From Eubacteriales bacterium (lineage in GTDB: Bacteria > Bacillota > Clostridia > Lachnospirales > Lachnospiraceae): a stretch of DNA of 64,000 nt. The position numbers and the translations under genes are program-made. The stretch spans positions 20,406 to 84,405 of the forward strand of contig JAUNGJ010000002.1 in NCBI GenBank assembly GCA_030524585.1, written 5' to 3'. Of this stretch, positions 42,832 to 59,954 are shown in pieces; position 1 is the stretch's first letter; the number at the start of each line of letters is the position of its first letter. Below the pieces are notes generated by a model that worked only from the letters and a program-made list of their open reading frames with translations, was not told where the DNA came from and did no database searches.

Positions 42832-42865
42832 CAGAATAAAAATATAGAAGAATGAGGTATCTATT

Positions 42866-44176
42866 ATGGGCGAGAAAATCACAAGAGAAAACAGGAAATT
42901 TAAATTTGAAACATTACAGCTGCATGTTGGTCAGGAGAAGCCGGATCCGGTAACCGATGCCAGAGCAGTGCCGATTTATCAGACTTCATCCTATGTATTC
43001 CGCAACAGCGATCATGCGGCAGCACGTTTCGGTCTGGCGGATGCGGGAAATATTTATGGACGTCTTACAAATCCTACGGAGGATGTATTTGAGCAGAGAA
43101 TTGCGGCCCTGGAGGGCGGCGTGGCAGCGCTTGCCGTAGCATCAGGAGCAGCAGCGATCACCTATACCATCGAGAATCTGGCCCAGAATGGCGACCATAT
43201 TGTATCCGCTAAAAATATTTACGGAGGTTCCTATAATCTGCTGGCGCACACACTTCCACAGTATGGCATTCAGACAACATTTGTAGACATCTTTAATTAT
43301 GATGAGGTGGAAGCGGCAATTCAGGATAACACAAAGGCAGTTTTCATCGAAACTCTTGGCAATCCGAATTCGGACGTAGTAGATATTGAAGCCATTGCTG
43401 AAATAGCACATAAGCACAAAATTCCGCTTGTAATTGATAATACCTTTGCAACTCCATATCTGGTGCGTCCAATTGAATATGGAGCTGACATTGTGGTACA
43501 TTCCGCAACGAAATTTATCGGAGGACACGGCACGACGATTGGTGGTGTGATTATTGATTCCGGTAAATTTGACTGGGAAGCATCCGGAAAATTCCCGTCC
43601 TTAACCGAGCCGAATCCAAGCTATCACGGAATCAGCTTTACAAAGGCAGTAGGAGCGGCGGCATTTGTAACAAAGATTCGCGCGATCCTTCTGAGAGATA
43701 CCGGAGCGACGATTTCACCTTTCCATGCATTTATCTTCCTGCAGGGTCTGGAGACGCTTTCACTGAGAGTAGAGCGTCATGTGGAGAATGCGCTGAAGGT
43801 AGTAGAATATTTGAATAACCATCCACAGGTAGAAGCAGTACATCATCCGGCAGTAACTGCGGATGAAAGCCAGCAGGAACTGTATAAGAAGTATTTCCCG
43901 AATGGCGGAGGCTCCATCTTTACATTTGAGATCAAAGGGGATGCCCAGAAAGCGAAGGATTTTATCGATAATCTTGAGCTGTTCTCACTGCTTGCAAATG
44001 TAGCTGACGTGAAGTCCCTTGTGATTCATCCGGCTACCACCACACACAGCCAGTGCACGGAGGAAGAGCTGTTAGACCAGGGAATTAAGCCGAATACAGT
44101 GCGTCTCTCCATTGGAACAGAGAATATTGATGATATTATTCAGGATCTGGAAGAGGCATTCAAGGCAGTGCAGTAA
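42866..44176 (+). CDS. O-acetylhomoserine (O-acetylserine) sulfhydrylase, MetY/CysD-type
   Basis: N-terminus [11 protein letters not shown]...[15 protein letters not shown]-lysine context [10 protein letters not shown]. 436 aa. Confidence 0.88.
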
Positions 44177-44193
44177 TAGTGCGTGGGGTAATC

Positions 44194-44640
44194 ATGAAGC
44201 TTTCAAAAAAGTGCAGGTATGGACTCAGGGCTTTGATCGATCTGTCTGCAAATGCTGGGAATGAATACATGGTGCTGGGAAATATCGCGGAGCGAAATGG
44301 TGTCTCTCCACAATATCTGGAACAGGTATTTGCCAGTCTCCGAAGAGCGGGGATCGTAAAAGGAATCAAAGGCTCACAGGGAGGCTACCGGCTGAATATA
44401 GATCCGGGAGAACTTACGGTTTCGGAGATTCTGGAGGCTCTGGACGGCAGTTATCAGATTGACGCAGAGGAGACTCCGGATGACAGTCATGGCCGTGGTA
44501 TAGCAGACAGTATTCAGAATCTGGTGATTGATCAGATTAATGAAAAATTAAATCAGATATTAACGGGTATCACATTGAATGATTTGAAAAGGCATTATTT
44601 GGATTATAAAGAATACAATCAGGATATGTACTATATTTAG
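44194..44640 (+). CDS. Rrf2-family regulator, CymR-like (no Fe-S cysteine triad)
   Basis: N-terminus MKLSKKCRYGLRALIDL and ...YLEQVFASLRRAGIVKGIKGSQGGYRL. It lacks the IscR-type Cys cluster. Confidence 0.8.
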   Translation: MKLSKKCRYGLRALIDLSANAGNEYMVLGNIAERNGVSPQYLEQVFASLRRAGIVKGIKGSQGGYRLNIDPGELTVSEILEALDGSYQIDAEETPDDSHGRGIADSIQNLVIDQINEKLNQILTGITLNDLKRHYLDYKEYNQDMYYI

Positions 44641-44643
44641 TGG

Positions 44644-44671
44644 AAAGAGAGCCTTAGAGAGGCTCTCTTTT
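44644..44671 (+). terminator. Intrinsic terminator (probably partial)
   Basis: Perfect 10-bp stem AAAGAGAGCC/GGCTCTCTTT with a 7-nt loop and a short T tail. The next ATG is only 35 nt downstream. Confidence 0.65.
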
Positions 44672-44705
44672 GTAGTAAATTGGGGAAGGAAGGAAAAGAA
44701 CGGGT

Positions 44706-45851
44706 ATGGAGTATAGAATTGAGACGCGATGTATTCATGGAAAGGAACAGATGATCAAACAACATCCCTTTGGGACGGTCAGTGTGCCGATTTATCAGAC
44801 GGCAACCTTTTCTCATCCAGGTATCGGCCATTCAACGGGCTATGATTATTCAAGAGAAAGCAATCCTACGAGGAGTGAGCTGGAAGAGGTGGTTTCCTCG
44901 CTGGAGGGGGCCTTTGACACAGTGGCCTGTTCTTCTGGGATGGCGGCGGTCACACTCTGTCTGGAATTGTTTCACAGAGGGGATCATATCCTGTGTACCG
45001 ATGATCTGTACGGCGGTTCCGTGCGGGAATTTGAGACGGTTGGAAGAAAGCGGGGATTGGAATTTTCCTATGTCGATACTTCGGATTGGAAGCTCGCCGA
45101 AAGGGGGATCCAAAAAAACACCAAAGCGTTGTATATTGAGACGCCCAGCAACCCAACCATGAAGGTGACGAACCTATATAAAATGAAAGAACTGGCAAAA
45201 CAGCATGATCTTCTGCTGATCGTGGATAACACGTTTCTGACGCCATATTTCCAGAACCCTCTTGCCCTGGGGGCAGATATTGTGATTCACAGCGGCACCA
45301 AGTTTCTGGGAGGGCATAATGATACGCTGGCCGGATTCTTAAGTACATCCAGGGAAAGCCTGGCTTCTGAGATCCGTTATCTCTATAAAACGGTTGGCAG
45401 CAGTTTATCGCCCTTTGACAGTTTTTTATTGCTGCGGGGGATTAAGACATTGTCTGTCCGGCTGGAAAAACAGCAGAGCAATGCGTTGGAAATTGCCCGC
45501 TGGCTTCAGGATCATGATAAAATAGAGGATGTGTATTATGTGGGATTGCCGGAGCATCCGGGATATGATACAAACCTGGCCCAGTCCAGAGGATTCGGAA
45601 GCATGATTTCATTCCATACGGATACGCCGGAGACAGCGAGAAGGATGCTGGAGAAAATCCGGCTGATCACCTATGCGGAAAGCCTTGGCGGGGTGGAATC
45701 TCTTCTGACCTATCCTATGCTTCAGACACACGGAGATGTCCCGGCAGAGGTGCGGGAGAGGCTTGGTATTACGGATTCTTTTTTGCGGATGTCGGTTGGG
45801 ATTGAGAACATACAGGATCTGATCGAGGATCTGGAATATGCGCTTTCATAA
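44706..45851 (+). CDS. Cys/Met-metabolism PLP enzyme (cystathionine gamma-synthase / gamma-lyase / beta-lyase family)
   Basis: Motifs VPIYQTATF and the PLP-lysine context SGTKFLGGHND; 381 aa. Confidence 0.88.
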   Translation: MEYRIETRCIHGKEQMIKQHPFGTVSVPIYQTATFSHPGIGHSTGYDYSRESNPTRSELEEVVSSLEGAFDTVACSSGMAAVTLCLELFHRGDHILCTDDLYGGSVREFETVGRKRGLEFSYVDTSDWKLAERGIQKNTKALYIETPSNPTMKVTNLYKMKELAKQHDLLLIVDNTFLTPYFQNPLALGADIVIHSGTKFLGGHNDTLAGFLSTSRESLASEIRYLYKTVGSSLSPFDSFLLLRGIKTLSVRLEKQQSNALEIARWLQDHDKIEDVYYVGLPEHPGYDTNLAQSRGFGSMISFHTDTPETARRMLEKIRLITYAESLGGVESLLTYPMLQTHGDVPAEVRERLGITDSFLRMSVGIENIQDLIEDLEYALS

Positions 45852-45875
45852 ATGACAGAGGACGGAGGATAAGAA

Positions 45876-47039
45876 ATGTTTGATTTTGATACAACGATAG
45901 AACGAAGAGGAACGGATTGTTTAAAGTATGATTTTGCCAGAGAGCGGGGGATGCCGGAGGATGTGCTGCCCCTGTGGGTTGCCGACATGGATTTTGCCAC
46001 CGCGCCTGTGATTCTTGAGAAGCTGGAGCAGAGAGTCCGCCACGGAATATTCGGATATTCGGAGGGGAAAGAAGGATACTTCCGGGCTTTGGAGAGCTGG
46101 TATGAGAGACGGTTTGACTGGAAGGTTAAAAGAAGCTGGCTTGTGAAAACGCCGGGAGTAGTGTTTGCCCTTGCTACGGCTGTGCGGGCTTATACGGAGG
46201 CAGGAGATGCAGTGCTGATTCAGCAGCCGGTGTATTATCCCTTTAGTGAAGTGATTCTGGATAATGGAAGAAGATTGGTGAACAGCCCCCTGAAAATAGT
46301 GGAAGGCCGCTATGAGATGGACTTTGAGGATTTTGAGGCAAAGATCGTGGAAGAGAAGGTGAAGCTGTTTTTGCTTTGCAGTCCCCATAATCCGGCGGGC
46401 AGAGTCTGGAAAGAGTGGGAACTGAGAAAAGTGGGCGAGATTTGCCAGAAACACGGAGTACTTGTGGTCAGCGATGAGATTCACAGCGATTTTGTATGGC
46501 CTGGCAATCATCATCTGGTATTTGCGTCCCTGTCCCCGGAGCATGAAAAGATGACGGTCACCTGTACGTCGCCAAGTAAAACCTTCAATGTCGCCGGCCT
46601 TCAAATTTCGAATATTTTTATTCCGGATCCGGAGCTTCGAAGAAGGTTTCGGGAGAAGATGGCTTCGGCCGGATACAGTCAGCCGAACGTGATGGGACTG
46701 GCGGCATGCCAGGCTGCCTATGAGGGCGGAGAGCAATGGCTGGAGGAATTGAAAGGGTATATCTGGGATAATTATCTGTTCCTGAAGGATTATCTTGAGA
46801 AAAACATACCAAAGGTACAAGTCTTTCCTCTTGAGGGAACCTATCTGGTCTGGGTGGACTTCCGGCAAACGGGACTGACGGAAAAGGAGCGGCAGGATCT
46901 GATCGTAAATAAGGCGCATCTGTGGCTGGACAGCGGAGCGATGTTCGGAGAGGACGGGGAAGGCTTTGAACGGATTAACATTGCCTGCCCGAGGGCGACG
47001 CTGGAGCGGGCGTTGAGGCAGTTGGAGGAAGCACTATGA
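45876..47039 (+). CDS. patB: PatB/MalY-type aminotransferase with cystathionine beta-lyase activity
   Basis: N-terminus FDFDTTIERRGTDCLKYD, CSPHNPAGRVW and SPSKTFN (PLP lysine). Confidence 0.85.
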   Translation: MFDFDTTIERRGTDCLKYDFARERGMPEDVLPLWVADMDFATAPVILEKLEQRVRHGIFGYSEGKEGYFRALESWYERRFDWKVKRSWLVKTPGVVFALATAVRAYTEAGDAVLIQQPVYYPFSEVILDNGRRLVNSPLKIVEGRYEMDFEDFEAKIVEEKVKLFLLCSPHNPAGRVWKEWELRKVGEICQKHGVLVVSDEIHSDFVWPGNHHLVFASLSPEHEKMTVTCTSPSKTFNVAGLQISNIFIPDPELRRRFREKMASAGYSQPNVMGLAACQAAYEGGEQWLEELKGYIWDNYLFLKDYLEKNIPKVQVFPLEGTYLVWVDFRQTGLTEKERQDLIVNKAHLWLDSGAMFGEDGEGFERINIACPRATLERALRQLEEAL

Positions 47040-47656
47040 AAAATCCACTTCACTATCAATTATCAGAATATGACTGTGGACCCACGGCGATGTTGAATGC
47101 CATCAGGTTTTTGTTTGAACGGGAGGAAATATCGCCGGTGGTTATCCGGAATATTATGCTGTACTGTCTTGACAGCTATAATGATGAGGGCATTATGGGG
47201 AAATGCGGCACCTCCCATGCGGCCATGATGTTTCTCAGCAACTGGTTGAATGGATTTGGAAAGATCGGCCAGCTTCCGGTATCCAGCAGCTATCTTTCCG
47301 GCGAGGGCGTCTGGGTAGGAAAAGGAAGCCACATCAACGGCGCGCTGTGCCGGGGAGGCGTGGTGGTGGTGCGGCTGTTTTTTGACTGTGCCCACTATGT
47401 GCTGCTTACCGGGATTCGGGATGGGAAGATTCTGATGTTTGATCCCTATTATGTGGAAGGTGATCTGGAACAGCCAGGGGTGGTCCAGGTAGAGGATCAG
47501 CCCTTTTGGTATAACAGGATCGTGGATGTAAGCTGTTTTAACCGGGAGTCTACGGAGCTGTATGCCCTGGGGCCGGTGGAATGCCGGGAGGCGGTAATTA
47601 TTTACAATGACAATACAAAGAAAGAAGAGGAAGAGGCAATTGAGTATTTTATTTAA
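47036..47656 (+). CDS. Cytoplasmic papain-fold, peptidase C39-like protein
   Basis: Q-x5-C motif QLSEYDCGPTAMLNA (Cys codon at 47075-47077) and CAHYVLLTG (candidate His). No signal peptide or TM helix. The start overlaps the patB stop (ATGA). Confidence 0.55.
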   Translation: MKNPLHYQLSEYDCGPTAMLNAIRFLFEREEISPVVIRNIMLYCLDSYNDEGIMGKCGTSHAAMMFLSNWLNGFGKIGQLPVSSSYLSGEGVWVGKGSHINGALCRGGVVVVRLFFDCAHYVLLTGIRDGKILMFDPYYVEGDLEQPGVVQVEDQPFWYNRIVDVSCFNRESTELYALGPVECREAVIIYNDNTKKEEEEAIEYFI

Positions 47657-47679
47657 AACATACTATTTTGGTATGTTTT
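47655..47679 (+). terminator. Stem-loop / terminator
   Basis: 9-bp stem AAAACATAC/GTATGTTTT with a 7-nt loop; AT-rich. Confidence 0.5.
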
Positions 47680-47711
47680 AAATAAAATACAATGAAGTTA
47701 TACAGAGTCTG

Positions 47712-47739
47712 TTGACAAAAGATTTTTTCATGCTATAAT
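47712..47739 (+). promoter_or_regulatory. Consensus sigma-A promoter with an extended -10
   Basis: TTGACA (47712-47717), 16-nt spacer, TGcTATAAT (47731-47739). Confidence 0.75.
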
Positions 47740-47747
47740 CCTATTAA

Positions 47748-47759
47748 ACAGATAGGAAA
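47748..47759 (+). promoter_or_regulatory. ACAGATAGGAAA box (second copy); candidate CymR-type operator
   Basis: The 12-mer is identical to 41825-41836 and lies just downstream of the -10. ATAGGAA resembles the ATMGGAAT core of the B. subtilis CymR site. Confidence 0.35.
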
Positions 47760-47797
47760 GATATAGATAAGAAATAAAGTGGAAAGGAGAAGATAAC

Positions 47798-47947
47798 ATG
47801 ATGAAAAAGATACACAAATGTTTGGAATATATGTGTTGTTGCGGCGGTATGTGTACGCCTATGGCTGAATGTTGTCAGGATTTAATGATGCTTTCCATGC
47901 TGCAGATTTATGACTTCCGGAACAGAGAATGGACGCCGGGGTCATAA
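47798..47947 (+). CDS. 49-aa Cys/Met-rich small ORF (candidate leader peptide), absent from the ORF track
   Basis: My translation: MMKKIHKCLEYMCCCGGMCTPMAECCQDLMMLSMLQIYDFRNREWTPGS, with 7 Cys and 8 Met. SD AAGGAG (47783-47788) lies 9 nt upstream of the ATG. Confidence 0.6.
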   Translation: MMKKIHKCLEYMCCCGGMCTPMAECCQDLMMLSMLQIYDFRNREWTPGS

Positions 47948-47982
47948 TGCAGAAAAAAGGAATGGGATTCCGGAGAATACAA

Positions 47983-48009
47983 AGGAAGCATCACGCTTCC
48001 TGTTTTTTT
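47983..48009 (+). terminator. Intrinsic terminator / attenuator
   Basis: Stem AGGAAGC/GCTTCCT (47983-47989 / 47995-48001), 5-nt loop, then GTTTTTTT. The next gene's SD begins about 20 nt later. Confidence 0.75.
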
Positions 48010-48043
48010 GCGCAAAATTTACGGTATATGAGGGAGAGAGACG

Positions 48044-48703
48044 TTGGATATTGAATTTGTGACCGAATATTTGCCCATGTATGTGGAGGCTGCAAAGCTG
48101 ACGCTGCGACTGGGATTCATAGGTATTCTGTTTTCTATTGTGATTGGAATTATCTGTTCTCTGGTTGGATATTATAAGATTCCGCTGTTGAGACGGATAA
48201 CGGCAGTATACATAGAGCTGTCCAGAAATACGCCGTTGCTGGTACAGTTGTTTTTCCTGTATTTTGGACTTCCCAAGCTGGGAATCATGCTCAGCTCAGA
48301 GGGATGTGCGATCATCGGGCTCAGCTTTCTGGGCGGCAGCTATATGGCGGAGGCTTTTCGCAGCGGCCTGGAGTCCGTTGAAAAAAGCCAGGTGGAGTCA
48401 GCCCTTGCCATAGGACTGAGTCACCCTCAGGCGATGCGTTACGTGGTTTTTCCGCAGGCGTTGGCGGTATCCATACCGCCCCTTTGTGCGAATATCATTT
48501 TTCTGATCAAGGAGACCTCCGTGTTCAGTGTGGTAGCGCTTGCCGATCTGATGTATGTGGCGAAGGATCTGATCGGGCTGTATTACCAGACGGACGAGGC
48601 GCTGCTGATGCTGGTGATTGCCTATCTGATCTTGCTGCTGCCGGTTTCTCTGGCGGCGGGCTTGCTGGAGAGGAGGTTAAGGTATGCAGGATTTGGGAAT
48701 TAG
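48044..48703 (+). CDS. Polar amino-acid ABC permease (TcyL/YxeN-like)
   Basis: His/Glu/Gln/Arg/opine-family permease features, including the EAA-type loop ALAIGLSHPQAMRYVVFPQA. TTG start after SD GAGGGAGAG. Confidence 0.85.
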   Translation: MDIEFVTEYLPMYVEAAKLTLRLGFIGILFSIVIGIICSLVGYYKIPLLRRITAVYIELSRNTPLLVQLFFLYFGLPKLGIMLSSEGCAIIGLSFLGGSYMAEAFRSGLESVEKSQVESALAIGLSHPQAMRYVVFPQALAVSIPPLCANIIFLIKETSVFSVVALADLMYVAKDLIGLYYQTDEALLMLVIAYLILLLPVSLAAGLLERRLRYAGFGN

Positions 48704-49361
48704 AGTATTGTTCATGGGCAATAACTTTTCCAGGCTGTTAGGGGGCCTGTGGATTACCGTCAAGATTTCTCTGATTGCGGTTGCCCTGTCGATGGTATTG
48801 GGAATCCTTCTGGGGATGGTTATGACGCTGAAACATCCGGTTACCAGATTTATTACAAAGGTGTATCTGGAATTTATCCGAATCATGCCCCAGCTGGTGC
48901 TTCTGTTTCTGGTGTATTTCGGACTCACCAAATCCTTCGGAATCCAGCTGTCCGGGCAGACTGCCGCGGTGATCGTGTTTACCCTCTGGGGGACGGCAGA
49001 GATGGGAGACCTGGTCAGAGGAGCGCTGATCTCCATACCAAAGCATCAGTACGAAAGCGGTGCGGCGCTGGAACTTGAGAGCAGGCAGATTTACCGGTAT
49101 ATCATCATTCCCCAGACCCTCAGGAGATTGATTCCGTTAGCCATTAATCTGACGACCAGAATGATTAAGACCACATCGCTGATCGTGTTGATCGGAGTGG
49201 TCGAGGTGCTGAAAACGGCGCAGCAGATTATTGAGGCGAACCGGTATACGGTTCCGGATTCGGCTCTTTGGATTTACGGAATGATTTTCTTCCTGTATTT
49301 CATCGTCTGTTGGCCAATCTCCAGATTCGCGGCAAGGATGGAAAAGAAATGGGAGAATTAA
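48684..49361 (+). CDS. Polar amino-acid ABC permease (TcyM-like)
   Basis: Second permease paralogue, with loop ESGAALELESRQIYRYIIIPQ. SD GAGGAGG upstream. Confidence 0.85.
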   Translation: MQDLGIRVLFMGNNFSRLLGGLWITVKISLIAVALSMVLGILLGMVMTLKHPVTRFITKVYLEFIRIMPQLVLLFLVYFGLTKSFGIQLSGQTAAVIVFTLWGTAEMGDLVRGALISIPKHQYESGAALELESRQIYRYIIIPQTLRRLIPLAINLTTRMIKTTSLIVLIGVVEVLKTAQQIIEANRYTVPDSALWIYGMIFFLYFIVCWPISRFAARMEKKWEN

Positions 49362-49376
49362 CCGGGAGGTGGTTTT

Positions 49377-50123
49377 GTGGAAGAGAAAGAAAAATTGCTG
49401 GAGGTACATGAGCTTTACAAGGATTACGGCAATGGTCCGGTACTGAAAGGCATATCGCTGGACGTACATAAAGGGGAGGTCGTGGTTCTGGTAGGACCTT
49501 CCGGCTGTGGAAAGAGCACGTTCCTTCGATGTATGAACGGGCTGGAGGCAATCCAGTCCGGGGAAATACGTTTGGATGGCAACGTGATCACAGATGATAA
49601 AACGAAATGGAGTGATGTGCGGCAAAAAATAGGAATGGTATTTCAAAGCTATGAGCTGTTTCCGCATATGACAGTTATGGACAATATTCTGCTGGGGCCT
49701 TTAAAGGTACAGAGAAAGGATAAAAGAGCGGCGGAAAAAGAAGCGGAGAAGCTTTTGGAGAGAGTTGGCCTCCTGGATAAGAGGGATTCCTTTCCCAGGC
49801 AGTTATCCGGGGGCCAGAAGCAGAGGGTGGCAATCGTCAGGGCACTGATCATGAAGCCGGAGATACTTCTTTTTGATGAAGTGACGGCGGCGCTGGATCC
49901 GGAAATGGTGCGGGAAGTGCTGGACGTTATGCTGGAGCTGGCAAGGGAAGGCTCTACCATGGTGATTGTTACTCATGAGATGCAGTTTGCCAGGGCGGTT
50001 GCAGACCGCATCGTATTTTTAGACGGTGGTGAAATTGTAGAGATGGATGCACCGGAGAACTTTTTTACCCGACCAAAAACCGAGCGCGCGCAGAGGTTTT
50101 TGAATACATTTACATTTAACTAA
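49377..50123 (+). CDS. Polar amino-acid ABC ATP-binding protein (TcyN/GlnQ-like)
   Basis: Walker A GPSGCGKST, signature LSGGQKQRV, Walker B LLFDEVTAALD. GTG start after a GGAGG SD. Confidence 0.9.
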   Translation: MEEKEKLLEVHELYKDYGNGPVLKGISLDVHKGEVVVLVGPSGCGKSTFLRCMNGLEAIQSGEIRLDGNVITDDKTKWSDVRQKIGMVFQSYELFPHMTVMDNILLGPLKVQRKDKRAAEKEAEKLLERVGLLDKRDSFPRQLSGGQKQRVAIVRALIMKPEILLFDEVTAALDPEMVREVLDVMLELAREGSTMVIVTHEMQFARAVADRIVFLDGGEIVEMDAPENFFTRPKTERAQRFLNTFTFN

Positions 50124-50140
50124 AAGGAAGGATGGTTATT

Positions 50141-51748
50141 ATGAAAAAGATTTTTACATTATTACTGGCATTTGTTCTTATACTGGGAACATTGACAGGA
50201 TGCGGACAGAAAGCCGACGGTAAAGCGGAGGCAGATGACGGGGAGCGGGTATACCGCACTCTGGATGAGATCAAGGAAAGCGGTAAGATTGTTGTGGGAG
50301 TATTCAGCGATAAAAATCCATTTGGCTATGTGGATGAGAACGGCGACTACCAGGGCTATGACGTTTATTTTGCAGAGCGTCTGGCGAAGGATCTTGGCGT
50401 AGATATTGAATATGTGTCTACAGAAGCCGCAAGCCGTGTGGAATATCTGGAATCCGGAAAAGTTGACGTGGTCCTGGCAAACTTTACGGTGACAGAGGAA
50501 CGTGCAGAGTCCGTAGATTTCGCGCTGCCATATATGAAGGTTGCCCTTGGAGTGGTTTCTCCGGATGACGCTCTGATCACAAGTGCGGATGAGCTAAAAG
50601 GTAAAACACTGATTGTTGCAAAAGGAACTACTGCCGAGACCTACTTTACGGAAAATTATCCGGATGTAGAGCTGCTGAAGTTTGATCAGTATACAGAAGC
50701 TTACAACGCGCTGCTGGACGGCAGAGGCGACGCACTTTCTACTGACAATACGGAGGTTCTGGCATGGGCGCTTCAGAATGAAGGCTTTTCTGTGGGAGTA
50801 GAATCCCTGGGAGATCTGGATACCATTGCACCGGCCGTATCAAAGGGAAATGATACATTAAAAGACTGGATCAATGACGAAATCGTGTCGCTGGCAGATG
50901 AGCAGTTCTTCCATGCAGACTATAAAGAAACGCTGGAACCTGTATACGGTTCAGAAGTAGATATCGACAGCCTGGTAGTAGAAGGCGGCGTGGTTGAAGA
51001 AGAAACAGAAGCAAAGGGAACCATTACGGTGGCAGCATCTGCCACTCCTCACGCGGAGATTCTGGAGCAGGCAAAGCCTCTGCTTGCAAAAGAAGGATGG
51101 GATCTGGAAGTGACCGTGTTTGATGATTATGTACAGCCAAATCTGGTAGTTGAAAGTGATGAGTTTGACGCAAATTACTTCCAGCATATCCCGTATCTGG
51201 AAGATTTTAATAAGGAGCAGGGAACCCATCTGGTCAATGTGGGCGGCATTCACTACGAACCATTCGGTATCTATCCGGGAACCAAAGATTCTCTGGATGA
51301 TCTGAAAAAGGGCGATGTCATTGCTGTGCCAAATGACACAACCAATGAGGCCAGAGCATTGCTTCTTCTGGAGGCAAATGGTGTGATTACTCTGAAAGAC
51401 GGGGCAGGGCTTGCCGCAACGGTAAAGGATATCAAGGATAATCCGCTGGATATCCAGATTCAGGAGCTGGAAGCAGCGCAGGTATCCAGAGTAAAGGATG
51501 AGGTGGCCTTTGTGGTACTGAACGGAAATTATGCATTGGAGGCAGGCTTTTCCGTAGCAAAGGATGCTATCGCCTATGAAACTTCTGACTCAGAGGCTGC
51601 AAAGACATATGTGAATGTGATTGCAGTAAAAGAGGGAAATGAGGATTCAGAGGGAGTGAAGGCGCTGGTTAAGGTATTGAAGTCTGATGCGATCAAAGAC
51701 TATATTACAGAGACCTATGACGGAGCAGTTATTCCGTTTGAAGAATAA
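50141..51748 (+). CDS. Lipoprotein with two fused solute-binding domains: family-3 polar amino-acid SBP plus MetQ/NlpA-type methionine SBP
   Basis: Lipobox LTGC. Roughly aa 40-290 look like SBP_bac_3 (GKIVVGVFSDKNPFGY...KGTTAE). After an E-rich linker, roughly aa 295-535 look like MetQ (ITVAASATPHAEILE...DANYFQHIPYLEDFN...VAVPNDTTNEARAL). ATG 50141 lies 9 nt after SD AAGGAAGG. Confidence 0.85.
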   Translation: MKKIFTLLLAFVLILGTLTGCGQKADGKAEADDGERVYRTLDEIKESGKIVVGVFSDKNPFGYVDENGDYQGYDVYFAERLAKDLGVDIEYVSTEAASRVEYLESGKVDVVLANFTVTEERAESVDFALPYMKVALGVVSPDDALITSADELKGKTLIVAKGTTAETYFTENYPDVELLKFDQYTEAYNALLDGRGDALSTDNTEVLAWALQNEGFSVGVESLGDLDTIAPAVSKGNDTLKDWINDEIVSLADEQFFHADYKETLEPVYGSEVDIDSLVVEGGVVEEETEAKGTITVAASATPHAEILEQAKPLLAKEGWDLEVTVFDDYVQPNLVVESDEFDANYFQHIPYLEDFNKEQGTHLVNVGGIHYEPFGIYPGTKDSLDDLKKGDVIAVPNDTTNEARALLLLEANGVITLKDGAGLAATVKDIKDNPLDIQIQELEAAQVSRVKDEVAFVVLNGNYALEAGFSVAKDAIAYETSDSEAAKTYVNVIAVKEGNEDSEGVKALVKVLKSDAIKDYITETYDGAVIPFEE

Positions 51749-51803
51749 ATCTGACAGGCAGTTCGATATGCAGAAGACGTTTCCCGATACGTCTGATTGG
51801 CAT

Positions 51804-51860
51804 ACGAAAGTATAGAAAAGCAGGGATGCTGCGTCTAAAGGGCGGCATCCCAACTTTCGT
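51804..51860 (+). other. Nested intergenic RNA stem-loop between the SBP gene and metN
   Basis: Outer stem ACGAAAGT/ACTTTCGT (51804-51811 / 51853-51860) encloses a 10-bp stem GGGATGCTGC/GCGGCATCCC (51823-51832 / 51842-51851). No U-tract follows. Confidence 0.5.
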
Positions 51861-51889
51861 TCATAGAATCTATGGGAAGGAGCAATACA

Positions 51890-52693
51890 ATGGAGCCAAT
51901 GATAAGGGTAGAACATTTGAATAAAGTATTCCGGTCTGCCGGGGAGGAGGTGACTGCCGCAGATGATATCAGCTTTGCGATTGATAAGGGAGACATCTAC
52001 GGGGTCATCGGATTATCCGGCGCGGGGAAAAGCACGCTGGTCAGGTGCCTGAATCTGCTGGAGAAACCGTCCTCCGGGAATGTGTACATAGGAGAGAAGA
52101 ATCTCACGAAGCTTTCCGGAAAGGAACTGCGGATGGAGAGGCGAAAGATCGGAATGATTTTTCAGCATTTTAATCTTCTGATGCAGAGAACTGTGCTGGA
52201 CAATGTGTGCTTTCCTCTGGAAATTGCGGGAATGAAGAAGAAAGAGGCCAGAGAACGCGCGAGGAAGATGCTGCAGACAGTAGGATTGGAGGATAAAGCA
52301 AAGGCCTATCCGGTCCAGCTGTCCGGAGGCCAGAAGCAAAGAGTTGCCATTGCCCGCGTGCTGGCGGCAAATCCTGAGATCATACTCTGTGATGAGGCAA
52401 CCAGCGCTCTGGATCCTCAGACTACAAAATCGATACTTGACTTGTTGAGGGATATTAATCAGCAGTATGGAATCACGATCGTGGTGATCACCCATGAGAT
52501 GAGTGTGGTGCGGGAAATCTGCAGCCACGTGGCAGTTCTGGATCGTGGAAGGCTGGTAGAGTCCGGAACGGTGAAGGAGGTATTTGGCGCGCCGAAGACC
52601 GAGGCGGCCCGGAGGCTGATCCTATATGGAGGAAGCCCGGCGGGCAGATGGGAAGAACGAAGAATTGCGGAGGATTTGGATCATGTGGGATAA
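51890..52693 (+). CDS. metN: Methionine-type ABC ATP-binding protein (MetN-like, no C-terminal NIL domain)
   Basis: Walker A GLSGAGKST, signature LSGGQKQRV, Walker B ILCDEATSALD. Only about 267 aa. ATG 51890 lies 7 nt after SD GGAAGGAG. Confidence 0.8.
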   Translation: MEPMIRVEHLNKVFRSAGEEVTAADDISFAIDKGDIYGVIGLSGAGKSTLVRCLNLLEKPSSGNVYIGEKNLTKLSGKELRMERRKIGMIFQHFNLLMQRTVLDNVCFPLEIAGMKKKEARERARKMLQTVGLEDKAKAYPVQLSGGQKQRVAIARVLAANPEIILCDEATSALDPQTTKSILDLLRDINQQYGITIVVITHEMSVVREICSHVAVLDRGRLVESGTVKEVFGAPKTEAARRLILYGGSPAGRWEERRIAEDLDHVG

Positions 52694-53345
52694 GGAAATG
52701 ATTACCATGTTAGTGGACGGAACTGTGGATACACTTTATATGACGCTGATATCAACGCTGTTCGGGTATGTGCTGGGGCTCCCGATGGGGATTCTGCTGG
52801 CGGTAACCGATAAAGAAGGAATCCGGCCAAATGGGTTGTTATATAAAATACTGGATTTCATAGCAAATCTGATCAGAAGTATTCCGTTTTTGATTCTTCT
52901 GATTCTTGTAATACCGCTGACAAAGCTGATCGTAGGACAGAGCTATGGTCCAAACGGTACGGTGGTGCCCCTTGTGATTGCGGCGGCGCCTTTTATCGGC
53001 CGTATGGTAGAGTCTTCTCTGAAGGAAGTGGATCAGGGAGTAATTGAGGCGGCGATCAGCATGGGAGCCGGAACCGGGGAGATTATCTGGAAGGTTTTGC
53101 TGGCGGAGGCGCGCACATCGCTGCTTGTGGGAGTCACCATTGCTATCGGCACGATCCTCGGCTATTCGGCGATGGCCGGAGTGGTAGGAGGCGGAGGTCT
53201 GGGAGATATTGCCATCCGCTATGGCTATTACCGGTATCAGACGGACGTAATGCTGGTGACGATCGTCATTCTGGTGCTTTTGGTACAGATTATGCAGGGC
53301 TTGGGAATGCTGCTGTCAAAGAAAATGGATAAGCGAAGAGTATAG
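52683..53345 (+). CDS. metI: Methionine ABC permease (MetI-like)
   Basis: Five TM helices and the loop EAAISMGAGTGEIIWKVLL. ATG 52683 lies 8 nt after SD GGAGGA and overlaps the metN stop. Confidence 0.8.
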   Translation: MWDKEMITMLVDGTVDTLYMTLISTLFGYVLGLPMGILLAVTDKEGIRPNGLLYKILDFIANLIRSIPFLILLILVIPLTKLIVGQSYGPNGTVVPLVIAAAPFIGRMVESSLKEVDQGVIEAAISMGAGTGEIIWKVLLAEARTSLLVGVTIAIGTILGYSAMAGVVGGGGLGDIAIRYGYYRYQTDVMLVTIVILVLLVQIMQGLGMLLSKKMDKRRV

Positions 53346-53380
53346 GAAATCGGAAAAAGAGATATAAAAGGAGATATAAG

Positions 53381-54586
53381 ATGGGAAAACACACATTTGG
53401 AAGCGAATACGGATTTCAGACAAGAGCAGTACACACAGGGAATGATATTGACCGGGAGACCGGAGCAATCAAACGCCCGATTACGATGGCAAACAGCTAT
53501 GCGCTCCCCTACGATCCGACGGATCTGAACTGGAGCAGCGCGGGAGGGAACCTTTATACAAGAAACGGCGGTTCGAACCAGCAGTATTTACAGGAGAAGA
53601 TCGCCAGCCTGGAAGGCGGTGAGGACTGTATTGTGCTTGCCTCCGGCGTGGCTGCTCTATCCGGTCTGTTTTTTGCTCTGCTGGAAAAAGGAGATCACGT
53701 TATTTTCTCCAGTGTGACTTATATTGCGGTATATCGTCTTCTTCATGAGCTTTTGAATCACAAGTTTGGCGTGGAGACAAGTCTTGTGGATACTTCGGAT
53801 GTGGAAAATGTAAAGAAGGCGATACGGCCGAATACGAAACTGATCCATATTGAGACGCCCGGCAATCCCACGCTGACGGTATCGGATATCCGGGCAATCG
53901 CCGAGGCTGCCCATGAGCATGGGATCTTACTGTCCGTGGACAATACCTTTGCTTCGCCGTATAACCAGCGCCCGATTGAACTGGGGGCAGATTTTTCCAT
54001 AGAAAGCCTGACGAAATTTATCAATGGTCACGGAGACTCTATGGGCGGTTCCATTACCGGGAGGAAAGAATACCTCGATAAAATCCGCGCCCAATCGCAG
54101 GTGAATCTTGGAGGAACTATCAGCCCGTTTAATGCATGGCTGATTATGCGCGGCGCGGTAACCTTTCCCCTCCGGATGAGGCAGCACAATGAGAACGCTC
54201 TTGCGGTGGCAAAATGGCTGGAACAGCAGGAATGCGTCAGCTTCGTGGCATACCCGGGACTAAAGAGCAGCCGGGGATATGAGACCGCTGTGAAGCAGAT
54301 GAATCCAGGCTTTGGGGGAGTGCTCTCTTTTGGATTAAAAGCAGATCACGATACCCACAATCAGTTTGTAAGCCATCTGAATGTAATTACCTCTGCGGTA
54401 TCTCTTGGGCACGACGAAAGCCTGATCGTATTTTTGGGAGAAGACGACGAACGACAGTATCTGTATCCGGATGAATTTTCCAATGGATTTTTCCGGTTTT
54501 CGGTAGGAATAGAGGATGTAGAAGATATTATTGGAGATCTCAGACAGGCTCTTGGCAAATGCGGGTTCAAAACAGGCGGGGAATAA
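53381..54586 (+). CDS. Cys/Met-metabolism PLP enzyme, methionine gamma-lyase-like
   Basis: Motif FQTRAVHTG and PLP-lysine context SLTKFINGHGD; 401 aa. Confidence 0.8.
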   Translation: MGKHTFGSEYGFQTRAVHTGNDIDRETGAIKRPITMANSYALPYDPTDLNWSSAGGNLYTRNGGSNQQYLQEKIASLEGGEDCIVLASGVAALSGLFFALLEKGDHVIFSSVTYIAVYRLLHELLNHKFGVETSLVDTSDVENVKKAIRPNTKLIHIETPGNPTLTVSDIRAIAEAAHEHGILLSVDNTFASPYNQRPIELGADFSIESLTKFINGHGDSMGGSITGRKEYLDKIRAQSQVNLGGTISPFNAWLIMRGAVTFPLRMRQHNENALAVAKWLEQQECVSFVAYPGLKSSRGYETAVKQMNPGFGGVLSFGLKADHDTHNQFVSHLNVITSAVSLGHDESLIVFLGEDDERQYLYPDEFSNGFFRFSVGIEDVEDIIGDLRQALGKCGFKTGGE

Positions 54587-54592
54587 AAGGAC

Positions 54593-55732
54593 ATGAAATC
54601 TATCACAGTGAATGAGCTGGAGAAGCTGGATCCGGAAAAGATTACAATTATTGATATCCGAAAGCAGGAGGATTATCAGAGAAATACGATTCCGAATGCA
54701 ATCAACGTTCCCACAGAGACCTTTCAGGACACCATACCGGATCTGGATAGGGCAAAACCAGTATACGTCCTGTGCTATACAGGTGAGAAAAGCGATGGAG
54801 CTGTGGAGCTGCTGGAAGAGGCAGGGTATGATGCGGCAAATATTACCGGAGGCTACCGGGCGTTCCTGCGGCTTAAGTTAAGCCGGATGGTGCAGAACGA
54901 ATCGGAGCTTGAAGAAAAAAGGAAAGAAATTGAGAGAAGTCTGCTGAAAAAATTCCGGAAATCAATCTGGAGAAAATTTACGAAAGCCGTGCAGGAATAC
55001 CAGCTGATCCAGGAAGGAGATAAGATTGCGGTCTGCATATCCGGAGGGAAGGATTCCATGCTGATGGCGAAATTATTTCAGGAACTGCAAAGGCATGGAA
55101 AGATACCCTTTGAACTGGTTTTTCTGGTGATGAATCCGGGATATAACCAGGACAACTGGAAGATTATTCAGGATAATGCCAGAGTCCTTGGGATTCCGCT
55201 GACCGTATTTGAAAGTGATATATTCAATATTGTTGCAGGGGTTGATAAGAATCCCTGCTATCTGTGTGCCCGTATGAGGAGAGGGTATCTGTATTCGAAT
55301 GCAAAGAGGCTGGGATGCAATAAGATTGCGCTGGGACATCATTTTGACGATGTGATTGAGACCATTCTCATGGGAATGCTTTACAGCGGGAAGATAGAGA
55401 CGATGATGCCGAAGCTTCACAGTACAAATTTTGAAGGAATGGAATTAATCCGGCCGCTTTATATGGTGAAGGAAGCGGATATTAAGGCGTGGCGTGATTA
55501 TAACAGCCTTCATTTTATTCAGTGCGCCTGCAGATTTACAGAAAACTGCGCAAGCTGCGGGGGCGGAAGAGGTTCTAAGCGGGATGAGATGAAAGAGCTG
55601 ATTGCAGGGTTCCGGCAAACCAGTGGTCTGATAGAGGCCAATATTTTTAAAAGTGTCTATAATATTAATCTTCGGACTGTAATCGGATATCAAAAAGATG
55701 GGCAGACACATAATTTTTTGGAGAATTATTAA
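54593..55732 (+). CDS. Rhodanese domain fused to a TtcA-family PP-loop ATPase (tRNA/sulfur-transfer enzyme)
   Basis: Rhodanese active-site loop VLCYTGEKS. PP-loop CISGGKDS. CYLCARMRRG as in TtcA. Extra C-terminal Cys cluster CACRFTENCASCGGG. Confidence 0.75.
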   Translation: MKSITVNELEKLDPEKITIIDIRKQEDYQRNTIPNAINVPTETFQDTIPDLDRAKPVYVLCYTGEKSDGAVELLEEAGYDAANITGGYRAFLRLKLSRMVQNESELEEKRKEIERSLLKKFRKSIWRKFTKAVQEYQLIQEGDKIAVCISGGKDSMLMAKLFQELQRHGKIPFELVFLVMNPGYNQDNWKIIQDNARVLGIPLTVFESDIFNIVAGVDKNPCYLCARMRRGYLYSNAKRLGCNKIALGHHFDDVIETILMGMLYSGKIETMMPKLHSTNFEGMELIRPLYMVKEADIKAWRDYNSLHFIQCACRFTENCASCGGGRGSKRDEMKELIAGFRQTSGLIEANIFKSVYNINLRTVIGYQKDGQTHNFLENY

Positions 55733-55831
55733 AAAAGGAAGAATGGAAAAGACACAAAAGATTTGCACAGAACCACATAAAAAGCACACATTTCCCTGCT
55801 ATGCTGAATCACAGCGAAGGAGGCAGTGTGA

Positions 55832-57700
55832 ATGAAAGCATCAAACAGGAAGATTATGCTCTATATTGGAGGCATGACATGTATAAATTGCCAGAATAAA
55901 ATCGAAAAAACATTAAATAAAACCTATGGTGTGTGCAGTGCCAGGGTCAGTTACCGTGACGGCAGGGCTGAAATTGTCTATGATGAGAAAAAAATTTCCG
56001 TGCGGGAGATTAGGGAGACGATTGAAAGCCTGGACTATGAAGTCCTGGACAGACCGCAAAAGCAGGTGCCGGATATTATTCGTACGATATATCTGCTGGC
56101 GGTTATTCTTATGCTGTATGTGATTCTGCAGTCCCAGAACCTTCTGAACCGTCTGGTTCCAAGTCAGCTTGCTGACAGTAAAATGGGATATGGAATGCTG
56201 TTTATCATCGGTCTGATCACTTCGGTACACTGTATCGCCATGTGCGGCGGCATTAATCTTTCCCAGTGCATTCCCCAGTCTGAACAGGGAGAGGAGGGCG
56301 GCGGAAAGCTGTCGGCTTTTCGGGCTGCCTTTCTGTATAATCTGGGACGTGTAATTTCCTATACGGCAATTGGTTTTGTGCTGGGATTGCTGGGCATGAT
56401 AATCGGCGGTGACGCCCAGATCGGAATGGGGGAGATTTTGCAGGGTATTGTGAAAATCATTGCCGGTGTGTTTATGATAATTATGGGAATTAACCTGCTG
56501 GGACTCTTTCCGGGCCTGCGGAAATTTACCATACGGATGCCGCGGACTCTGGCCGTCAGGGTCGGAGTAGAGAGGGCAAAAAGTAACCGTCCATTTTATG
56601 TGGGAATTTTGAATGGATTTATGCCATGCGGGCCGCTGCAGGCCATGTGGATCGTGGCTCTTGGGACGACGAATCCGCTGGCAGGAGCGCTGTCTATGTT
56701 TCTGTTTAGTCTGGGAACGGTGCCGTTAATGCTGGGGCTGGGTTCTATAGTATCGGCGCTTGGAAAGAAATTTACGAAGAAGATGATGACGGCAGGCGCT
56801 GTTCTGGTGGTGGTGCTTGGCCTTGCGATGGTTTCTCAGGGATGTTCTCTAAGCGGCCTGTCTCCCGTCTGGGGCAGGCAGAAAAAAGCGGAGGCAGGTG
56901 AAGCCGGGGACGTATCCATTCAGAATACAGATGGTATCCAGGAGGTTCACAGCACACTGGAAATCGGTCGCTATCCCAACATTACTGTACAGAAGGGGAT
57001 TCCTGTGAAATGGATCATTGACGCCCCAGAAGGAAGCATCAATGGATGCAATTACAGAATGCGGATCCCGAATCTGAATCTGGAGCACACCTTCCAGGCC
57101 GGAGAAAATGTTATTGAATTTACACCGGAAGAAATCGGCACGATTCAATATAGCTGCTGGATGGGCATGATTCATGGCAGCATTTATGTGACCGACGATG
57201 GAACAGAGGCAGAGGATGTAACAGAAAGTAACGCAGTGGAACAGGAGGCGGCAGAAGCAGTTCCATCCGGATATTCCATTCCGACGGAGAACATTGCCGT
57301 TGCGTCCATGGGCGAAGACGAGCAGGGGAATCCCATTCAGAAAGTTGACGTAAGGCTGACGGATCAGGGATTTGAGCCTGCAATCGTGGTGGTGCAAAAG
57401 GAAATAAATGTAATCTGGAATATTACGGTGGAAAGGGAAGATGCTGATGGGGGAATTGATTTTCTTGCACCCATGTATTCCACGAAGCTGACGCTGGAAA
57501 GTGGAGAGAATCCCCTGTCGCTGTATCCAACGGAGGATTTTGATGTTGCTGTCGGCGATTATAAAGGATTTGCATATCTGAAGGTGGTGGACGATTTGAA
57601 TTATATAGATGAAACGGCCATTCGGGCGGAAGTGGCGGATTATGAGCCGCAGATTTACCCGGCGTCTATCTATGATACAGGTATGAGCTGCTGCAATTAA
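55832..57700 (+). CDS. Fusion protein: HMA metal-binding domain, DsbD_2/TauE-like membrane domain and two cupredoxin-like domains
   Basis: GMTCINC (HMA). TM core with SVHCIAMCGG and FMPCGPL. A cupredoxin-like domain with NGC...YSCWMGMIHG. Second beta-rich domain. C-terminal MSCCN. Confidence 0.7.
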   Translation: MKASNRKIMLYIGGMTCINCQNKIEKTLNKTYGVCSARVSYRDGRAEIVYDEKKISVREIRETIESLDYEVLDRPQKQVPDIIRTIYLLAVILMLYVILQSQNLLNRLVPSQLADSKMGYGMLFIIGLITSVHCIAMCGGINLSQCIPQSEQGEEGGGKLSAFRAAFLYNLGRVISYTAIGFVLGLLGMIIGGDAQIGMGEILQGIVKIIAGVFMIIMGINLLGLFPGLRKFTIRMPRTLAVRVGVERAKSNRPFYVGILNGFMPCGPLQAMWIVALGTTNPLAGALSMFLFSLGTVPLMLGLGSIVSALGKKFTKKMMTAGAVLVVVLGLAMVSQGCSLSGLSPVWGRQKKAEAGEAGDVSIQNTDGIQEVHSTLEIGRYPNITVQKGIPVKWIIDAPEGSINGCNYRMRIPNLNLEHTFQAGENVIEFTPEEIGTIQYSCWMGMIHGSIYVTDDGTEAEDVTESNAVEQEAAEAVPSGYSIPTENIAVASMGEDEQGNPIQKVDVRLTDQGFEPAIVVVQKEINVIWNITVEREDADGGIDFLAPMYSTKLTLESGENPLSLYPTEDFDVAVGDYKGFAYLKVVDDLNYIDETAIRAEVADYEPQIYPASIYDTGMSCCN

Positions 57701-57720
57701 ACTCAATTTTTATGAAGCTG

Positions 57721-57747
57721 CCCAAGTTTTCAGGCTTGGGTTGTTTG
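57721..57747 (+). terminator. Weak intrinsic terminator
   Basis: 6-bp stem CCCAAG/CTTGGG, 8-nt loop, then TTGTTTG. Confidence 0.45.
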
Positions 57748-57784
57748 CATTTCAGAAACGGGAAACAATGGATGGAGGATAAGT

Positions 57785-58483
57785 GTGGTTCAGACGGTTT
57801 TAATAGTGGAAGATGAGAGGATGGTTCGGGAGGCGGTGTCTTCTTATCTGCGGAAGCAGGGCTGTCAGGTTTTCTGGGCAGAGAATGGAAAAGATGCACT
57901 GGATATATTTAAAAAAGAGGCGGTCACTTTTGTAATCTTAGACTTGATGCTGCCGGATATGACCGGGGAAGAAATCTGTACCATCCTGCGGAAAAGATCA
58001 AGAGTGCCTATTATTATGCTGACAGCAAAGACTCAGGAGGAAGATATTCTAAATGGGCTTCGGATAGGAGCCGATGACTATATCACAAAGCCTTTTAGCT
58101 TAAAACAGTTATATGCCCGTATGGAAGTGATACTTCGCCGCACAGGAGATGAGCTGAAGCCGCTTTCGCAGAAATTCAGCTGGAATGCAGATGATCTGGT
58201 GGTGGATTTCGAGCACAGAGAGGTTTATAAGAAGGGAAAACCGCTTAATCTGACTCCCAGCGAATGGAAGATTCTGTCCGCCCTGATCCGGCATCCCCAG
58301 AAAGTGTATACCAGAGATGAGCTTATTGACCTGGTATTTGACTCGGATTTTAGCGGTTACAATCGGGTGATTGACACGCATATTAAGAATTTGCGCAAAA
58401 AGGTAGAGTGTAATCCAAAGTCGCCAGTCTACGTCCGAACGGTTCATGGTATCGGCTATAAGTTTGGGGGTGAAGAGGAATGA
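57785..58483 (+). CDS. OmpR-family response regulator
   Basis: Receiver domain (FVILDLMLPDM) plus a winged helix (VRTVHGIGYKF). GTG start 6 nt after a GGAGG SD. Confidence 0.9.
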   Translation: MVQTVLIVEDERMVREAVSSYLRKQGCQVFWAENGKDALDIFKKEAVTFVILDLMLPDMTGEEICTILRKRSRVPIIMLTAKTQEEDILNGLRIGADDYITKPFSLKQLYARMEVILRRTGDELKPLSQKFSWNADDLVVDFEHREVYKKGKPLNLTPSEWKILSALIRHPQKVYTRDELIDLVFDSDFSGYNRVIDTHIKNLRKKVECNPKSPVYVRTVHGIGYKFGGEEE

Positions 58484-59880: not shown

Positions 59881-59886
59881 ATGCGG

Positions 59887-59915: not shown

Positions 59916-59954
59916 AAGCTTTAGCGAATAAAAGCGTTAAAGGGGTAAAGTAAA

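Follow-up and report, generated by a model that had tools for sequence, protein, structure and literature searches.

A gene encoding a two-headed binding lipoprotein was found in a 64,000-nucleotide stretch (the window) of an Eubacteriales bacterium of the Lachnospiraceae (assembly GCA_030524585.1; contig JAUNGJ010000002.1, positions 20,406 to 84,405, forward strand). Its open reading frame (ORF) is one uninterrupted frame, 50132 to 51748, in which Pfam recovers an SBP_bac_3 domain (PF00497) at residues 53 to 257 (98.8 bits; cut-off, 26.4), followed by a Lipoprotein_9/NlpA domain (PF03180) at residues 298 to 535 (283.5 bits; cut-off, 27) that covers profile positions 1 to 234 of 236. The BPD_transp_1 domain was not found by Pfam in the 538-residue protein, which thus carries two binding domains and no permease fusion. 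The initial annotation, made from the letters and their translations, had described a polar-amino-acid-type domain joined to a MetQ-type domain in one lipoprotein, with a lipobox (LTGC), a complete family-3 binding domain up to about nucleotide 51000, an acidic linker (VVEEETEAKG), and a complete NlpA/MetQ-like domain, and had proposed Pfam mapping as a check; all of these elements are present. The features of the locus are collected in the table.

Features of the fused gene and its surroundings (positions of the window unless a locus is named)
Feature	Position	Strand	Evidence or remark
Fused two-headed binding lipoprotein	50132..51748	+	ORF list, Pfam, relatives; 538 amino acids from 50132; probable start, 50141
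Signal peptide ending in lipobox LTGC (residues 21-24, Cys24)	50141..50203	+	Read from translation
Head 1: CjaA/Ngo2014-type domain, predicted to bind L-cysteine (residues 42-288)	50255..50995	+	Sequence and structure similarity
Acidic interdomain linker (residues 289-296)	50996..51019	+	Low predicted local distance difference test (pLDDT) score; length variable in relatives
Head 2: MetQ-type domain, predicted to bind L-methionine (residues 297-538)	51020..51745	+	Sequence and structure similarity; without own signal peptide
Permease 1, polar-amino-acid (HEQRo-type) ATP-binding cassette (ABC) importer	48044..48703	+	BPD_transp_1, 86.5 bits; TIGR01726 HEQRo_perm_3TM, 98.9 versus cut-off 42.2
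Permease 2, same polar-amino-acid importer	48684..49361	+	BPD_transp_1, 50.9 bits; TIGR01726, 72.6 versus 42.2
ATPase of polar-amino-acid importer (GlnQ/TcyN-like)	49377..50123	+	ABC_tran, 141 bits
MetN-type ATPase, 267 amino acids	51890..52693	+	TIGR02314, 347.7 bits, model positions 1-241 of 343
MetI-type permease	52626..53345	+	NF008049, 208.7 bits versus cut-off 212; ORF from 52626, likely start near 52683
Sigma-70-type promoter-like site before operon	47712..47739	+	12/12 consensus matches plus TG extension; pattern match only
Leader ORF of 49 codons with 7 Cys and 8 Met	47798..47947	+	ORF composition
Terminator-like hairpin with T run, between leader ORF and first permease gene	47983..48001	+	Sequence pattern
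Hairpin of 10 bp in the 141-nucleotide spacer from fused gene to metN	51823..51851	+	Weak U tract follows
Leader ORFs in relatives	L013:3554-3706; L014:3577-3735; L026:3579-3788; L055:3488-3652; L023:32-115; L032:5733-5861; L049:5566-5718; L034:3702-3809		

The start at 50141 (MKK) is called probable and is the start of most orthologues in the protein alignment. The only lipobox of the fused protein closes the hydrophobic signal peptide at residues 21 to 24, and its Gly23 and Cys24 are kept in at least 90% of 30 aligned fused proteins. Two relatives, L013:6001-7620 and L026:6001-7731, have a signal peptide without the lipobox cysteine (...LAGFHTAVSAAE... and ...LFGSAVITSAAE..., respectively), and their anchoring or release may differ. 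Head 1 ends near nucleotides 50995 to 51000, the CjaA alignment reaching residue 290, and the MetQ-type domain begins at residue 297 (nucleotide 51020), where the first MetQ strand lies. Between them the linker of the window is about 8 to 11 residues long: about 8 as EEETEAKG, and 11 by the linker measure used across relatives. Head 2 follows the acidic linker and has neither a signal peptide nor a lipobox of its own.

The fused gene is flanked by two sets of transporter genes, as the initial annotation had it: a permease-permease-ATPase set (48044 to 50123) and a MetN-MetI pair (51890 to 53345), neither with a binding-protein gene of its own. No other binding-protein gene appears in the ORF list within 47657 to 53345.

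The fusion is real and not the product of chance or local error. Since the genome of the window is a draft in 115 contigs, and since a library of clusters at 50% identity contains obvious chimeras of these domains with unrelated proteins, the alternative was weighed that an assembly, sequencing, or gene-calling artefact had joined what are really two genes. A word-index search returned 7,996 scored relatives, and both Pfam domains are present in all of the 120 listed (80 to 99% identity; 531 to 572 amino acids). Scanning a single genome of each species confirmed 234 relatives, and 80 loci were kept from these; among the 26 loci examined as candidate fused genes, all from other assemblies, 24 have a single open frame through both domains. 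The exceptions are L033, which is broken, and L027, a permease::MetQ chimera, and these two speak for the artefact. In L033 (5967-7362), head 1 is followed in another frame by a MetQ head missing its first 92 residues, and in L027 (5572-6879), the first 141 residues of permease 1 and the MetQ head share one open frame; deletion or misassembly is possible in both. Against an artefact stand, besides the relatives and the intact loci, seven ESM Atlas matches in domain sets with both domains in every member (the three clusters shown have 61, 67, and 99 members), the lack of a signal peptide on the MetQ head, and the unfused head-1 genes of relatives, which end in ...VVEGGKVE-stop, at precisely the point at which the fused form enters its linker. 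Public sequencing runs added little: five runs, with no RNA run among those listed, contained small shares (0.07 to 0.17) of the sampled words, and the reads of four gave short contig pieces only. A 199-nucleotide contig from run X3 spans 50984 to 51182 with two substitutions and without gaps; because fewer than 31 of its letters fall on the side of head 1, it was not counted as bridging the linker. Taken together, we regard an artefact as extremely unlikely, and the view of one gene with two receptor domains is upheld.

The proteins of the window were mapped onto the 80 loci. Order A, permease-permease-ATPase-fused gene-MetN-MetI, is found in 10 loci in addition to the window; order B, fused gene-MetN-MetI-permease-permease-ATPase, is found in 6 intact loci and in the broken L033; and order C, in which the fused gene is followed by MetN and MetI with no permease operon within the flanks, is found in 8 loci; the chimera L027 makes up a category of its own. 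In the window, as in each of the 24 intact fused loci, MetN and MetI come after the fused gene, and none of the three orders includes a separate binding-protein gene with either translocator. Unfused homologues were found as well. Those of head 1 (42 loci) always lie directly 3' of the ATPase gene, and those of head 2 (12 loci) always adjoin MetI, with MetN also present in 11 and the contig of the twelfth, L084, cut short. In L037, L038, and L077, both systems adjoin each other in unfused form.

Five of the eight order-C genomes were searched whole. All five contain the orthologous permease-permease-ATPase operon on another contig (permease 2 at 86 to 88% amino acid identity), and no binding-protein gene was found in the 13 to 16 kb around any of these five orphan operons. 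In each of the five, the fused ORF is the only CjaA-like match (87 to 92% identity; next best, at most 30%), and the same is true of the genome of the window, which is 91.8% complete (next best, at most 31%). Two receptor-less translocators together with one two-headed receptor are the main support for dual service, and the suggestion of the initial annotation that one tethered protein may supply the receptor for both neighbouring translocators fits the three gene orders and the five orphan operons.

Head 1 is most closely related to two L-cysteine receptors. In the sequence search against solved structures, the closest matches were 1xt8 (CjaA; E value, 8.1e-87) and 2yjp (Ngo2014; E value, 2.8e-79), and the next family-3 structures followed at 1e-33 or weaker. 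Foldseek likewise returned 1xt8 (53 to 54% identity), entitled "Cysteine-Binding Protein from Campylobacter jejuni," and 2yjp (56%), entitled "solute receptors for L-cysteine of Neisseria gonorrhoeae," with target template modelling (TM) scores of 0.83 to 0.84. L-Cysteine is given as the ligand of both entries in Table S1 of PMC10443332, and Ngo2014 is called cysteine specific in the portions consulted of bioRxiv 10.64898/2026.01.27.698081 and PMC7170509. Thr119, Arg124, and Asp205 of head 1 are invariant in 30 fused proteins, and the same residues appear in the alignments with both 1xt8 and 2yjp. By motif rather than by superposition, they match Thr-109, Arg-114, and Asp-192, the carboxylate and amino anchors described, in the part of PMC7170509 consulted, for a FliY model built on 2YJP.

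A cystine-type assignment (FliY/TcyJ) of head 1 was rejected, because the domain reaches only 105.5 bits against the cut-off of 312 of the cystine equivalog model NF008426 and its nearest structures are L-cysteine receptors. The initial annotation had called this half a polar amino-acid domain of the cystine type; the family-3 polar amino-acid part of that description stands, and the cystine part gives way to the CjaA/Ngo2014 type. We infer that head 1 is cysteine type, with L-cysteine or a very close thiol amino acid as its predicted ligand, a preference that would be expected of an anaerobe in surroundings dominated by the reduced form. The genome of the window contains a further family-3 binding-protein frame (G000:C64:7443-8156), which has an in-frame TAA and may be a pseudogene.

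For head 2, the closest solved structure is 4ib2, the putative lipoprotein RUMGNA_00858 (E value, 3.7e-120 in the sequence search; 76 to 78% identity in Foldseek). Table S1 of PMC10443332 gives L-methionine as the ligand of 4IB2, and in the portion of that source consulted, all 19 liganded Lipoprotein_9 proteins bind L-methionine or selenomethionine. The methionine contacts of Neisseria meningitidis MetQ are listed, in the part of PMC6739813 consulted, as Tyr81, Phe98, His100, Tyr103, Arg156, Asn213, and Asn238. Mapped by motif spacing and not by superposition, Tyr333, Phe350, His352, Tyr355, and Arg408 of the fused protein have spacing identical to that of the first five, and Asn466 and Asn495 fit the last two once insertions of one and four residues are allowed. 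All of these are invariant among the 30 fused proteins except Phe350, which is kept in at least 90%. Head 2 does not reach two NCBIfam MetQ models, TIGR00363 (167.5 bits versus 228.85) and NF008285 (176.3 versus 374); both are built on proteobacterial proteins, and 4ib2 is the closer reference. L-Methionine is the predicted ligand of head 2.

The initial annotation had allowed that one half might lack its ligand-binding residues, and the contact residues proved to be conserved in both heads. It had also allowed that dedicated binding proteins encoded elsewhere might serve these transporters, and here the outcome is mixed: a second MetQ-like lipoprotein, the only other one in the genome of the window, does exist, but as part of a separate metN-metI-metQ operon on a different contig (C53). 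P0122, a stand-alone MetQ at 80% identity to head 2, has a non-lipoprotein signal peptide and a C-terminal acidic tail of 27 residues (Glu, Ala, Asp, and Thr), which matches in composition the linkers found in fused proteins.

Strong purifying selection acts on both heads, as judged from coding-sequence comparisons with the window, in which the median ratio of nonsynonymous to synonymous substitution rates (dN/dS) is 0.033 for head 1 (13 of 18 pairs with a defined dS) and 0.055 for head 2 (10 of 18 pairs), values that are rough because dS is near saturation. The linker, in contrast to the heads, is not conserved in sequence; it is acidic and ranges from 8 to 57 residues in 19 fused proteins, the longest being that of L026. 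An AlphaFold2 model computed from 30 fused sequences has a mean pLDDT of 76.9 and a predicted TM-score (pTM) of 0.48, with pLDDT below 50 at residues 284 to 292, in the linker. No confident interdomain packing is seen in this model, which fits beads on a string. Only the GlnPQ tandem, 6h30, spans both domains among the Foldseek matches listed (526 columns; TM-score, 0.32 to 0.37).

In a docking model, head 1 against permeases 1 and 2 scored 0.68, and the best of three controls scored 0.42; 116 of 157 solved complexes attain the docking mark used, compared with 2 of 215 mismatched pairs. Three runs share at least 94% of their contacts, the pLDDT of the partner is at least 87, and in the pose, one lobe of head 1 lies on permease 2 and the other on permease 1. 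Because similar complexes have already been solved, passing the mark indicates likeness to known docking rather than binding.

The fusion extends beyond the genus of the window. When 400 other genera of the family were sampled with one genome each, the fused open frame was found in at least 15 of them: 13 gave near full-length single matches, and two (G055 and G096) have both halves in one frame. G226 gave a partial match. The single other species of the window's own genus gave no match at E values up to 1e-40. In the library of clusters at 50% identity, P0121 (67% identity) alone aligns with the query over its full length, judged on the best 150 among 28,011 matches. Fourteen of those 150 were scanned with Pfam, and the rest of these are same-family tandems or chimeras with unrelated domains. 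The tandems comprise P0123, with two SBP_bac_3 domains, and P0124, P0126, P0127, and P0206, with two Lipoprotein_9 stretches; P0269 is a MetI-MetQ fusion, and several other long matches look like gene-calling chimeras with a kinase, EF-Tu, IMPDH, or ParA.

Fusion events were counted on trees of both heads. The tree of head 2 (39 rows; L075, with a stop within its match, left out) has six changes between fused and unfused forms, of which well-supported branches force only one. That of the head-1 core (249 columns and 67 rows; the broken L033 left out) also has six changes, and a single fused clade is not rejected (approximately unbiased test, p-AU 0.449), so one fused clade would be compatible with the head-1 core. 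The best trees of both heads interleave fused and unfused forms. An earlier claim of repeated fusion or fission was withdrawn: the first head-1 tree (68 rows; p-AU 0.00012 against one clade) had included nonhomologous signal peptides and tethers.

Turning to the surrounding genes, permease 1 falls below the cystine permease model NF011680 (134 bits versus a cut-off of 300), and the ATPase next to it is under the equivalog cut-offs, with 298.9 bits to the GlnQ model and 289.3 bits to the TcyN model (cut-off, 406). Orthologues of the MetI-type permease align from residues 8 to 23 onward. The NIL/C2 domain of E. coli MetN mediates inhibition by internal methionine; in Pfam searches at E values up to 0.01, this domain was not found in either MetN of the genome of the window (51890-52693, 267 amino acids, and L103:1295-2113, 272 amino acids).

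Small ORFs rich in Cys and Met codons precede the operon in 5 of 11 cases of order A and in 5 of 6 of order B, compared with 59 of 3,000 random 630-nucleotide windows. Among relatives with unfused genes, Met-rich leader ORFs precede four of six MetQ operons sampled, and Cys-rich ones precede some head-1 operons. The make-up of the leader seems to track the operon, with mixed Cys and Met before the fused form, 10 to 11 Met before unfused MetQ-MetN-MetI, and Cys-rich leaders before some cysteine-type operons. The spacer between the fused gene and metN (51749 to 51889) folds at -43.7 kcal/mol (z = -3.15 versus shuffled sequences), and its hairpin may be a partial terminator or an mRNA stabiliser setting the ratio of receptor to translocator. 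Control by a riboswitch or a T-box was considered and rejected, as no Rfam match was found over 40000 to 60000 at gathering scores, nor in the spacer at E values up to 1.

The fused gene sits in a co-directional island of sulfur-amino-acid genes (42866 to 55732). This island includes three pyridoxal phosphate enzymes of Cys/Met metabolism (42866-44176, 44706-45851, and 53381-54586), an Rrf2-family regulator (44179-44640), a class I/II aminotransferase of the PatB/MalY type (45876-47039), and a fusion of rhodanese and PP-loop domains (54593-55732). A protein of 206 amino acids encoded at 47036 to 47656 has no Pfam match; the ESM Atlas places it in 'putative peptidase C39' clusters, with PF13529 in 17 to 31% of their members. 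In L008, L010, and L027, its homologues adjoin the PatB-like gene; in L011 and L014, they lie upstream of the permease genes.

From the architecture and its conservation, the gene contexts, the missing cognate binding-protein genes, and the contact residues, we infer ligands, docking partners, and independence of the heads as follows. The product would be a single extracytoplasmic protein, held by a lipid anchor, whose two receptor heads act independently and are connected by a flexible acidic linker. Head 1 would bind L-cysteine or a very close thiol amino acid and dock on the heterodimeric permease pair (48044 to 49361), driven by the neighbouring ATPase, and head 2 would bind L-methionine and dock on a MetI dimer driven by MetN. 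Through the fusion, the MetQ head would share the signal peptide and lipid anchor that belong to head 1, and the two receptors would be made at a fixed 1:1 ratio from one sulfur-amino-acid operon. By analogy with Gram-positive lipoprotein receptors, an anchor-less MetQ head in a cell without an outer membrane would have to stay attached to be useful. That two independent receptor heads on one lipid anchor serve two ABC importers is, in our view, the likely explanation. Several points weigh against it. None of the components reaches its NCBIfam equivalog or subfamily cut-off (the cystine binding-protein model, TcyN, and TIGR00363 among them), so that the substrates are predicted from likeness to solved structures and from conserved motifs, with the contact residues of both heads mapped by motif spacing. 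No ligand or transport measurement was found for any member of the fused family. The docking result may come from the model's memory of solved complexes of binding proteins with permeases, and the second metN-metI-metQ set in the genome leaves room for cross-use of binding proteins. The linker of the window, among the shortest, might hinder one head from docking during engagement of the other, and 2 of 24 fused orthologues (L013 and L026) lack the lipobox cysteine. Neither the fused gene in order C (0 of 8) nor the orphan permease operons (0 of 5) are preceded by a Cys/Met-rich leader, and as most of the genomes compared are metagenome bins, 'another contig' gives a minimum distance only.

The heads might instead be functionally coupled through the tether, holding both importers as one unit or docking in a mutually exclusive manner so that one uptake tunes the other. 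The initial annotation, too, had suggested that uptake of Cys and Met may be coupled. The persistence of the fusion through three gene orders, the unfused systems that are still sometimes neighbours, the short linker of the window, and the mixture of Cys and Met codons in its leader ORF would all agree with this. However, a defined geometry between the heads would not be expected to tolerate a linker of such variable length and no conserved sequence, the structure model has a low pTM and no confident packing between the domains, and in eight loci the permease operon is not near the fused gene. We consider coupling rather improbable; because the linker is acidic, unconserved, variable in length, and modelled with low confidence, the heads are most likely independent beads on one anchor.

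It would also be conceivable that one head only works as a transport receptor, the other being a spacer, an anchor module, or a sensor; head 1, for instance, could have been retained for export and anchoring alone, given a MetQ head without an anchor, and the genome does have another MetQ-type system. This is quite unlikely in the face of dN/dS values of about 0.03 to 0.06 in both heads, ligand-anchoring residues that are invariant in both, a permease operon that is otherwise receptor-less in the genome of the window and in all five genomes checked, and MetN-MetI following the fused gene in every intact locus. Nor do we favour a GlnPQ-like arrangement in which both heads feed the same translocator, widening the substrate range of either MetNI or the polar-amino-acid importer. 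Tandem domains on one translocator are a known design, of which 6h30 is an example, and only MetN-MetI adjoins the fused gene in the eight order-C loci; yet the heads come from different Pfam families, their unfused homologues are each tied to a different type of translocator (42 of 42 and 12 of 12 loci), the 'missing' permease operon turned up elsewhere without a receptor gene in all five genomes checked, and the docking model places head 1 on the permease pair. Such sharing of one translocator is very unlikely.

If two independent heads do serve two importers, the protein is a natural case of two receptors of different families, for related nutrients, on one shared anchor with apparently two translocators, and would offer a natural test system for the effects of tethering, linker length, and receptor stoichiometry on uptake. 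It predicts reduced cysteine and methionine as substrates of an importer pair in a set of gut Lachnospiraceae with many metagenome copies, and it mends generic annotations that name one half only ('MetQ/NlpA family' or 'transporter substrate-binding domain-containing protein'). Were the heads coupled, the cell would balance cysteine against methionine uptake at receptor docking; unless they prove to be so, the view of ABC import is unchanged.

ABC importers are usually described with one or several receptor proteins per translocator, and in the fused forms known so far, the receptor domains are joined to the permease that they serve. The initial annotation did not recognise the architecture as characterised, and no description of this fusion was found in the openly accessible literature searched; nor was a binding protein shared by two different ABC translocators found described there. 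TcyJKLMN of Bacillus subtilis is a cysteine/cystine ABC importer with separate binding proteins. Escherichia coli FliY-YecSC and meningococcal Cbp-Ctp-Cab (NMB0787-0789), as presented in the portions consulted of PMC7170509 and PMC6299482, share with the locus studied here a permease and ATPase of the polar-amino-acid type and a sulfur-metabolism neighbourhood. Their binding proteins are free-standing, in contrast to a receptor that is half of a fused protein and does not reach the cystine-type equivalogs.

Each head belongs to a well-known receptor family. CjaA (Cj0982, 1XT8) of C. jejuni and Ngo2014 (2YJP) of N. gonorrhoeae resemble head 1 over its whole length, in fold, and in pocket motifs, but they are single-domain proteins with a known ligand, whereas here the ligand is predicted, a second, unrelated receptor domain follows on the C terminus, and the host lineage is anaerobic and Gram positive. 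Head 2 resembles the MetQ of MetNI-Q systems (E. coli and N. meningitidis; closest, Rumgna_00858, 4IB2) in keeping the seven methionine-contact positions and in having MetN and MetI adjacent. It differs in being anchored via head 1, in the gene order Q-N-I rather than N-I-Q, and in a partner MetN without an NIL/C2 match. The same-family tandems of the cluster library (the five named above) are likewise secreted or anchored, with two receptor domains and no permease, but both of their domains come from one family. The combination does not look GlnPQ-like. GlnPQ of Lactococcus lactis (SBD1-SBD2, 6H30) also has two binding domains of different specificity on one polypeptide with a short linker; there, two family-3 domains are attached covalently to the permease and compete for a single translocator, whereas the fused protein joins two Pfam families on a lipid anchor, has no permease fusion, and, by its genomic context, would serve two translocators.

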